Source: Escherichia coli
Lineage (GTDB): Bacteria > Pseudomonadota > Gammaproteobacteria > Enterobacterales > Enterobacteriaceae
DNA length: 248 nt
Direction: 5' to 3' (one strand)
Assembly: GCF_003334255.1 (NCBI RefSeq)
Contig: NZ_QOWU01000276.1
How positions within the stretch are numbered: position 1 is the stretch's first letter; each line of letters opens with the position of its first letter. The notes under the pieces are model-generated. The model did no database searches and was not told where the DNA came from. It worked only from the letters and a program-made list of their open reading frames with translations. Of the stretch, positions 3 to 248 are shown piece by piece. The position numbers and the translations under genes were made by a program.

Positions 3-32
3 CAGGGACCACAAGGGCCAACCGGAAGGCTG
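3..32 (+). repeat. Collagen-like Gly-X-Y coding triplets (GPQ, GPT, GRL) giving a 9-bp DNA periodicity; may continue upstream of the window
   Basis: Frame-3 codons are cag|gga cca caa|ggg cca acc|gga agg ctg, i.e. Q-GPQ-GPT-GRL, with Pro in the X position of two triplets. At DNA level this appears as the imperfect 9-bp tandem acagggacc / acaagggcc / aaccggaag. The Gly-X-Y register breaks after position 32 (V-P-G-E). Confidence 0.5.
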
Positions 33-248
33 GTACCCGGGGAAATTTACAGCATCGGAACATACATTATTGCCGCAATAATCCCGTATGCAACCGACAT
101 CGGCAGAACCTATCAGCCAGGAGAAACTGTACAGGGTTCACGCCTTAAGCGATGCGCCATAATCAAAGATACAAGCGGGAACTATATGAAAGCTAACACC
201 GATGGCATTGACGGCAAACTATCCTCAGTTCCGGGCTCATGGATGGTG
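3..248 (+). CDS. Internal fragment of a protein-coding gene, partial at both ends; collagen-like repeat-containing protein, possibly a phage tail-fibre-like structural protein
   Basis: Frame 3 has 82 sense codons and no stop across the whole window, which has roughly a 2% chance in random sequence of this composition. About 68% of first codon positions are purines (56 of 82), as expected for coding sequence. The reverse strand has early stops in all frames (frame 1 at codon 4, frame 2 at codon 21, frame 3 at codon 18). Frame 1 on the + strand has stops at 79-81 and 160-162. The translation is given in the summary. The product call rests only on the Gly-X-Y motif and composition, not on a search. 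Confidence 0.65.

Follow-up and report, generated by a model that had tools for sequence, protein, structure and literature searches.

The 248-nt stretch of DNA analyzed here, referred to as the window throughout (GC content, 50.8%), very probably belongs to the side-tail-fiber gene of a temperate phage of E. coli, located at the position of lambda stf and showing unadapted codon usage, as judged from its sequence and that of its close relatives. A group of rare codons in the window had led the initial annotation to propose, with reservations, a horizontally acquired, phage-like gene. That proposal is supported by the prophage tail module in which the gene resides, and by a cassette, covering the whole window, that is present in unrelated types of phage. 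The excess of rare codons was confirmed to be real and far beyond chance.

Frame 3 (82 codons) was the sole stop-free frame among the six frames of the window, and two 24-aa ORFs in the other frames were judged to be noise. In a megablast search, the window was 99.6% identical (one mismatch) to the chromosome of E. coli strain S1-CAM-02-A (sequence L001, 12001–12248), where the match lies inside a CDS (L001, 10866–12311) that shares its frame with the window. A 42-mer spanning the single mismatch to S1-CAM-02-A had no match in species-representative genomes; its only exact match was found in one IMG/VR contig, which differed from the window at seven other positions. The homologous protein, WP_338671341.1, is annotated as “prophage tail fiber N-terminal domain-containing protein”; the stop codon of its gene lies downstream of the window, ending after a further 63 nt, and the full-length sequence matched the PHROGs family phrog_366, “tail fiber protein” (E = 3e-116). 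Pfam searches of this homolog detected a phage_tail_N domain (PfN, PF08400) in the 1–134-aa region (E = 2e-42), which is outside the window, four Collagen matches (PF01391) in the 135–232- and 290–388-aa regions, and a Phage_fiber_2 domain (Pf2, PF03406) in the 239–280-aa region. No domain was detected past residue 388 at E ≤ 10. The protein consists of four parts, namely a PfN tail anchor, a collagen-like Gly-X-Y shaft, a Pf2 interruption of this shaft and a small C-terminal tip, and the PfN anchor attaches the fiber to the tail. This kind of gene, a collagen-like prophage tail fiber, has already been annotated and described. The positions of all features in the window are given in Table 1. 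Rfam matches, direct or inverted repeats and a terminator were all searched for in the window and none was found, and the one weak promoter-like site was within chance expectation.

Table 1. Features of the 248-nt window, with nucleotide positions counted from its first letter.
Feature	Position (nt)	Strand	Basis
Exchanged ~650-bp cassette, containing the whole window	1–248	+	Sliding identity, PhiR5_1 (L008) vs P2-like prophage (L009)
Probable internal fragment of a prophage side-tail-fiber (stf-position) gene	3–248	+	Only open frame; codons 379–460 of WP_338671341.1 (481 aa)
Last Gly-X-Y triplets (QGPQGPTG) of the second collagen-like shaft segment	3–26	+	PF01391, residues 333–388; window starts at residue 379
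First 74 of ~93 residues of the non-collagenous C-terminal tip domain	27–248	+	Translation
GGA, four codons	6–8, 24–26, 57–59, 120–122	+	Frame-3 count
ATA, two codons	78–80, 159–161	+	Frame-3 count
AGG, one codon	27–29	+	Frame-3 count
AGA, one codon	105–107	+	Frame-3 count
CGA, one codon	150–152	+	Frame-3 count
CTA, one codon	219–221	+	Frame-3 count
Tip codons variable among alleles: 26–27, 30, 44	78–83, 90–92, 132–134	+	Protein alignment
Tip codons variable among alleles: 53, 57–58, 72	159–161, 171–176, 216–218	+	Protein alignment

The genomic context was read from near-identical relatives of the window, of which the best match differed from it by 1 nt. In S1-CAM-02-A, the genes on the 5′ side of the fiber gene encode the tape measure protein, M, L, K (a C40 peptidase), I, J and lom, and a DUF4376 tail-fiber assembly gene (tfa) begins 16 nt on its 3′ side. 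Farther upstream are the Q antiterminator, lysis, terminase, capsid and connector genes, and the integrase and excisionase genes of the prophage adjoin the core gene ompW. The fiber gene therefore has phage structural genes, and not core housekeeping genes, on its flanks, and occupies the slot after J-lom and before the tail-fiber assembly gene in a lambdoid late operon. The same order, J-lom-fiber-tfa, was observed in the complete lambda-like phage PhiR5_1, in strain JE86-ST05 and in one IMG/VR contig, for which gene order was read from ORF sizes. PhiR5_1 carries a full lambda-type virion gene set (Nu1 and A to J), and its deposited host is E. coli C. Its fiber protein is 523 aa long, and the tip is encoded at approximately 4027–4311 of L008. 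A literature search for a paper describing the PhiR5 and PhiR12 phages returned nothing relevant. The enterobacterial host that the initial annotation had assumed agreed with the distribution of the module, since its 28 genome matches and 8 phage matches were all from Escherichia.

The S1-CAM-02-A prophage appears to be defective. Its tfa is cut by an IS21-family (ISSso4) insertion, with a tfa remnant on the far side, its portal gene is frameshifted, a copy of ISEc10 separates gp17 from the major tail gene, and the early region contains IS629/IS3 fragments and a group II intron (coordinates of the defects: L001, 13008–15553; L005, 17676–20584 and 22094–24345; L007, 20676–24159). A YadA-like trimeric autotransporter gene was observed 3′ of stf-tfa in three carriers of the module, where the YadA_autotrans (NCBIfam) matches were below the curated cut-off (L001, 16235–17551; L010, 5268–6731; L008, 5705–6778). 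By position, this gene is similar to the prophage-borne Eib adhesins. An S6-family (SPATE-type) peptidase autotransporter is encoded farther 3′ in S1-CAM-02-A (L001, 18384–22391).

Sliding identity between PhiR5_1 and the P2-like prophage detected a block at approximately 3925–4580 of L008 in which the two elements were 97–100% identical, with flanks of 30–75% identity; the window corresponds to 4001–4248 of L008. The cassette defined by this block extends from ~75 nt on the 5′ side of the window, within the collagen triplets, to ~330 nt on its 3′ side, and contains the end of the collagen repeat, the tip and a 5′ stretch of ~83 codons from the DUF4376 assembly gene. Past the block, the tfa of the P2-like prophage is well diverged (pS, ~0.36), with a pN/pS of ~0.23 indicating purifying selection. 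The 3′ end of the cassette lies inside tfa, so that the DUF4376 protein was co-transferred in its N-terminal part only.

The tip is conserved as the C-terminus of fibers with three different N-terminal anchors. The first is the PF08400 anchor of lambda-like prophages. The second, from the 61.5-kb phage PhiR5_2, is divergent: its PF08400 match was weak (E = 0.012), and homology to the S1-CAM-02-A gene starts only at the Pf2 region. The third is the P2 H-type anchor (PF12571), encoded beside the baseplate genes V, W, J and I in the myovirus-type prophage of DETEC-S792. The module was rare, being detected in 28 of 5,426 complete E. coli genomes and in 8 of 50,697 phage records, and its rarity was unchanged when the collagen part was removed from the query. 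The number of copies per carrier genome ranged from one to eight, with a median of three and a total of 86 over the 28 genomes; such multi-copy carriage suggests that related phages have given rise to polylysogeny or that prophages sharing a genome have undergone gene conversion. In three proteins (P0012, P0014 and P0015), the tip was fused to unrelated, non-collagen N-termini, and the start of P0015 was a partial tfa-like sequence. These fusions probably reflect ORFs that were called too short, or loci that were rearranged or misassembled. The presence of an integrase and the patchy occurrence among strains are features of a mobile element, as is the sharing of a near-identical, sharply bounded segment by lambda-like and P2-like elements. 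At the level of sequence comparison, it is this sharply bounded cassette that argues for horizontal transfer, and it is stronger evidence than codon usage. The GC content of the tip and tfa, lower than that of the tail genes around them, also speaks for horizontal transfer.

Two large protein searches, covering 5.8 billion clustered proteins and 1.84 billion representatives, found relatives of the tip only in E. coli, at 79% identity or more. In an exhaustive HMMER search, just four matches were below 89% identity, all of them to short stretches of long, internally repetitive proteins. These four weak matches were rejected as chance, repeat-inflated similarities, two of them after inspection (P0022 by alignment and P0023 by sequence). 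A sequence search of the PDB with the tip gave no match (the best hit, with E = 0.98, was spurious), and AlphaFold2 modeling of the tip from a 17-sequence alignment gave a pLDDT of 36.8 and a pTM of 0.23. Differences between alleles in the tip were nearly all amino-acid-changing. By the Nei-Gojobori method, pN/pS was at least 1 in 16 of 21 pairs, values that are not statistically secure at 1–12 differences per pair, and the variation gives no more than a hint of diversifying or relaxed selection.

From its distal position on the fiber and its co-transfer with part of tfa, the tip is presumed to be the trimerization and receptor-binding end of the protein. As the distal end, it would contact the cell surface, and it would probably need the DUF4376 protein for folding or trimerization. 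The comparison of the two elements suggests that the N-terminal half of the DUF4376 protein may be the tip-specific part of this chaperone. A wider reading, which we put forward only tentatively and consider rather doubtful as a whole, is that the tip may represent an undescribed receptor-binding or trimerization domain confined to temperate phages of E. coli, moving between siphovirus and myovirus fibers as a minimal cassette with the N-terminal ~83 residues of the DUF4376 protein (the tip-specific half of the chaperone), and with ~8 surface positions under diversifying selection for receptor specificity.

Codon usage in the window was compared with reference sets of real E. coli sequence (L003 and L004). 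The highly expressed set comprised 36 ribosomal-protein, EF and rpoA genes (6,286 codons), and the str-S10-spc-alpha region was reached via an rpsL megablast. The core set comprised 58 ordinary core genes (17,658 codons), and the core sequence included a 50-kb stretch of the best-matching strain with the rplKAJL-rpoBC cluster. The initial annotation had counted six kinds of rare codon (Table 1), and recounting in frame 3 reproduced its counts exactly. These codons are indeed rare in the host, together making up 2.4 of every 1000 codons in the highly expressed genes and 17.3 of every 1000 in the ordinary core genes. The corresponding values were 37.9 per 1000 for the host prophage (36 CDS, 9,221 codons), 83 per 1000 for the whole tail-fiber gene (481 codons) and 122 per 1000 for the window (10 of 82 codons, spanning nt 6–221), where two of the four GGA codons fall in Gly-X-Y collagen triplets, in which Gly is obligatory, which calls for some caution.

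At core usage, 1.42 rare codons are expected per 82 codons compared with the 10 observed (binomial P = 1.6e-6); given the amino acids of the window, 1.95 are expected (P ~1e-5). Among 342 segments of 82 codons from the core set, the maximum was six rare codons and no segment had 10. Because the list of six codons was chosen post hoc, two list-independent measures were added. When every codon used fewer than 5 times per 1000 by the core genes was counted, 12 were observed in the window and 2.75 were expected (P = 1.9e-5). The CAI of the window was 0.258, compared with a mean of 0.427 (sd 0.114) for the core set and 0.684 for the highly expressed set, and higher values were found for 57 of the 58 core genes and for 99.1% of the 82-codon core segments. 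Even relative to the usage of the host prophage, the window was rich in rare codons (P ~1e-3, or ~1e-2 given its amino acids), and only 1.8% of the 82-codon prophage segments contained at least 10 rare codons. Codon usage in the window is atypical for the host by its CAI, by the number of rare codons (10 vs 1.4 expected) and by an effective number of codons (ENC) of ~51.

The rare codons are best explained by an almost even use of synonymous codons in the gene, without adaptation to the translational bias of E. coli. With even synonymous usage and the amino acids of the window, 8.8 rare codons are expected compared with the 10 observed (P(≥10) = 0.38). Since this expectation approximately equals the observed number, the gene is simply unadapted and not enriched in rare codons by a special mechanism. 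The ENC was 50.7 for the tail-fiber gene and 51.4 for the tip-plus-tfa cassette; it was 38.3 for the capsid gene and 37.9 for the major tail gene of the prophage, and 35.8 for rpoB and 31.3 for fusA. Within this prophage, rare codons amounted to only 12 per 1000 in the major capsid gene and 8 per 1000 in the major tail gene, and these two genes also had the highest CAI (0.44 for both), a pattern that agrees with the translational selection on abundant phage structural proteins reported previously (PMC2266997). The idea that rare codons are a general pattern of phage genes thus held for the low-copy, mosaic tail-fiber gene but failed for the capsid and major tail genes. In the whole fiber gene, 24 of the 40 rare codons were GGA, and 20 of these 24 were in the collagen segments, where every third residue is Gly. 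GGA accounted for 30% of the Gly codons in the fiber gene vs 9% in core genes. Each of six related sequences had 10–12 rare codons in the region of the window. At codons 26 and 53, the alleles carry either ATA or CTA (Ile or Leu, a single-base change), which are rare either way. Even usage would fit a fiber present in few copies per virion and under weak translational selection, a cause that we infer from the even usage itself; it would also fit recombination of a small cassette, made up of tip and chaperone, among phages of unrelated types.

Alternatively, the rare codons could be tolerated or favored through phage-borne tRNAs, as in 933W-type lambdoid phages; 933W has three tRNA genes (Table 5 of PMC2266997, with a secondary mention in PMC3636060). 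In the S1-CAM-02-A prophage, tandem tRNA genes were observed 3′ of Q and a DNA methyltransferase gene (L005, 4558–4719), and correspond to a tRNA-Ile (so annotated in RefSeq; anticodon CAT) and a tRNA-Arg (anticodon TCG). This tRNA-Ile resembles E. coli ileX, and presumably would read AUA. Like the 933W-type phages, the S1-CAM-02-A prophage has its tRNA genes after Q, and the codons that they would read are over-used: ATA makes up 16% of Ile codons vs 4% in the core set, and CGG and CGA make up 23% vs 7% and 7% vs 5% of Arg codons, respectively. The over-use of ATA and CGG fits supplementation of rare tRNAs. The two tRNAs would serve 3 of the 10 rare codons in the window (ATA twice, and CGA, the tRNA-Arg reading both CGA and CGG), whereas the other seven (GGA, AGA, AGG and CTA) are covered by neither. 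Moreover, the complete phage PhiR5_1 has the tip with 12 rare codons, yet it has no tRNA gene, and none was found in the examined parts of the P2-like prophage or PhiR5_2. Carriage of tRNA genes is therefore no property of the module, and PhiR5_1 speaks against tRNA compensation as a general explanation. The prophage tRNAs are at most a local contributor to rare-codon use, and we regard them as an unlikely explanation for it.

Less likely again is a recent donor of the cassette outside Escherichia, with a different codon bias from which the cassette has not yet drifted to E. coli usage. Codon usage in the cassette departs from that of core genes in E. coli, the module is patchily distributed, and the GC content of the tip (48.7%) and tfa (50.9%) is below that of the neighboring tail genes (55–60%). 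However, a GC content of 49–51% is the E. coli average, even usage indicates no particular donor, and the two large protein searches contained no relative from outside E. coli. Selected pause sites, which would assist folding during translation or registration of the trimer at the junction of collagen and tip, are a highly improbable source of the rare codons. Three of them do cluster at this junction (nt 6–29), and 8 of the 10 positions were invariant in seven sequences, the other two being the ATA/CTA positions. However, these sequences are 94–99.6% identical (2–6% diverged), so that conservation of the rare codons carries no weight; the ATA/CTA swaps are amino acid changes with no sign of codon maintenance; and selection is not needed where uniform usage already predicts 8.8 of the 10. 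Although there are just 82 codons and the list was picked after they had been seen, the chance that the excess is accidental, or that the gene is an ordinary chromosomal one, is negligible, because P ranged from 1.6e-6 to 1.9e-5 with the list of the initial annotation and the independent one, the CAI is in the lowest 1% of core segments, and the unambiguous prophage tail module refutes an ordinary chromosomal gene.

The unadapted fiber gene can be placed among known systems. Collagen-like proteins encoded by EHEC prophages, EPclA–D, have been described by Ghosh et al. 2012 (PMC3368898). EPclA is trimeric and dumbbell-shaped, consistent with a phage side tail fiber, and its PfC domain (PF06820) was shown experimentally to trimerize (PMC3368898). 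EPclC and EPclD are defined by a C-terminus without homology to PfC, and PCoil is often absent from EPclC (PMC3368898). The homolog of the window differs from EPclA and EPclB in that it has no PF06820 match, and therefore belongs to neither subtype. With EPclC it shares the PfN, Col, Pf2 and Col elements, a non-PfC C-terminus and the lack of a long PCoil, and its length of 481 aa compares with 479–520 aa for the listed EPclC examples (PMC3368898). It is likewise prophage-encoded in the side-tail-fiber slot, and its first Col segment also carries the GDPGGPPG interruption. In its domain order, the homolog thus fits the EPclC architecture. E. coli ED1a, which has three listed EPclC genes, was absent from the 28 tip-bearing genomes, drawn from a collection that may not include this strain.

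Lambda Stf is the protein in which PfN and Pf2 were originally recognized (PMC3368898). The homolog resembles the lambda Stf/Tfa system in its J-lom-stf-tfa slot, its PfN and Pf2 elements and the assembly gene on its 3′ side, but differs in its collagen-like shaft, its unrelated ~93-aa tip and the DUF4376 family of its downstream gene. Exchange of tail-fiber tips between unrelated phages, involving P2 H/G, Mu S/U, lambda stf/tfa and T-even phages, was reportedly described by Haggard-Ljungquist et al. in 1992. The cassette resembles those exchanges in that a distal segment together with part of an assembly gene is found on lambda-type and P2 H-type anchors, but it differs in its junctions, the 5′ one lying in collagen triplets and the 3′ one at about codon 83 of the assembly gene. 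What is mildly new is a sharply defined cassette of the tip plus half of the chaperone that is common to siphovirus- and myovirus-type elements, together with the orphan tip domain.

Beyond correct annotation, the significance of these results is small, since atypical codon usage in prophages, collagen-like prophage tail fibers and the swapping of fiber tips between phages are already established. The window can be confidently annotated as the part of a prophage side tail fiber in which the collagen shaft meets the tip. Its richness in rare codons tracks low-copy mosaic genes and not phage genes generally, the capsid and major tail genes being near host-like. Together, the tip and the N-terminal portion of its chaperone make up a small, seldom found and uncharacterized cassette with a putative role in host range, and plaque-forming carriers exist (the PhiR5 and PhiR12 series) that could be used to find the receptor of the tip.
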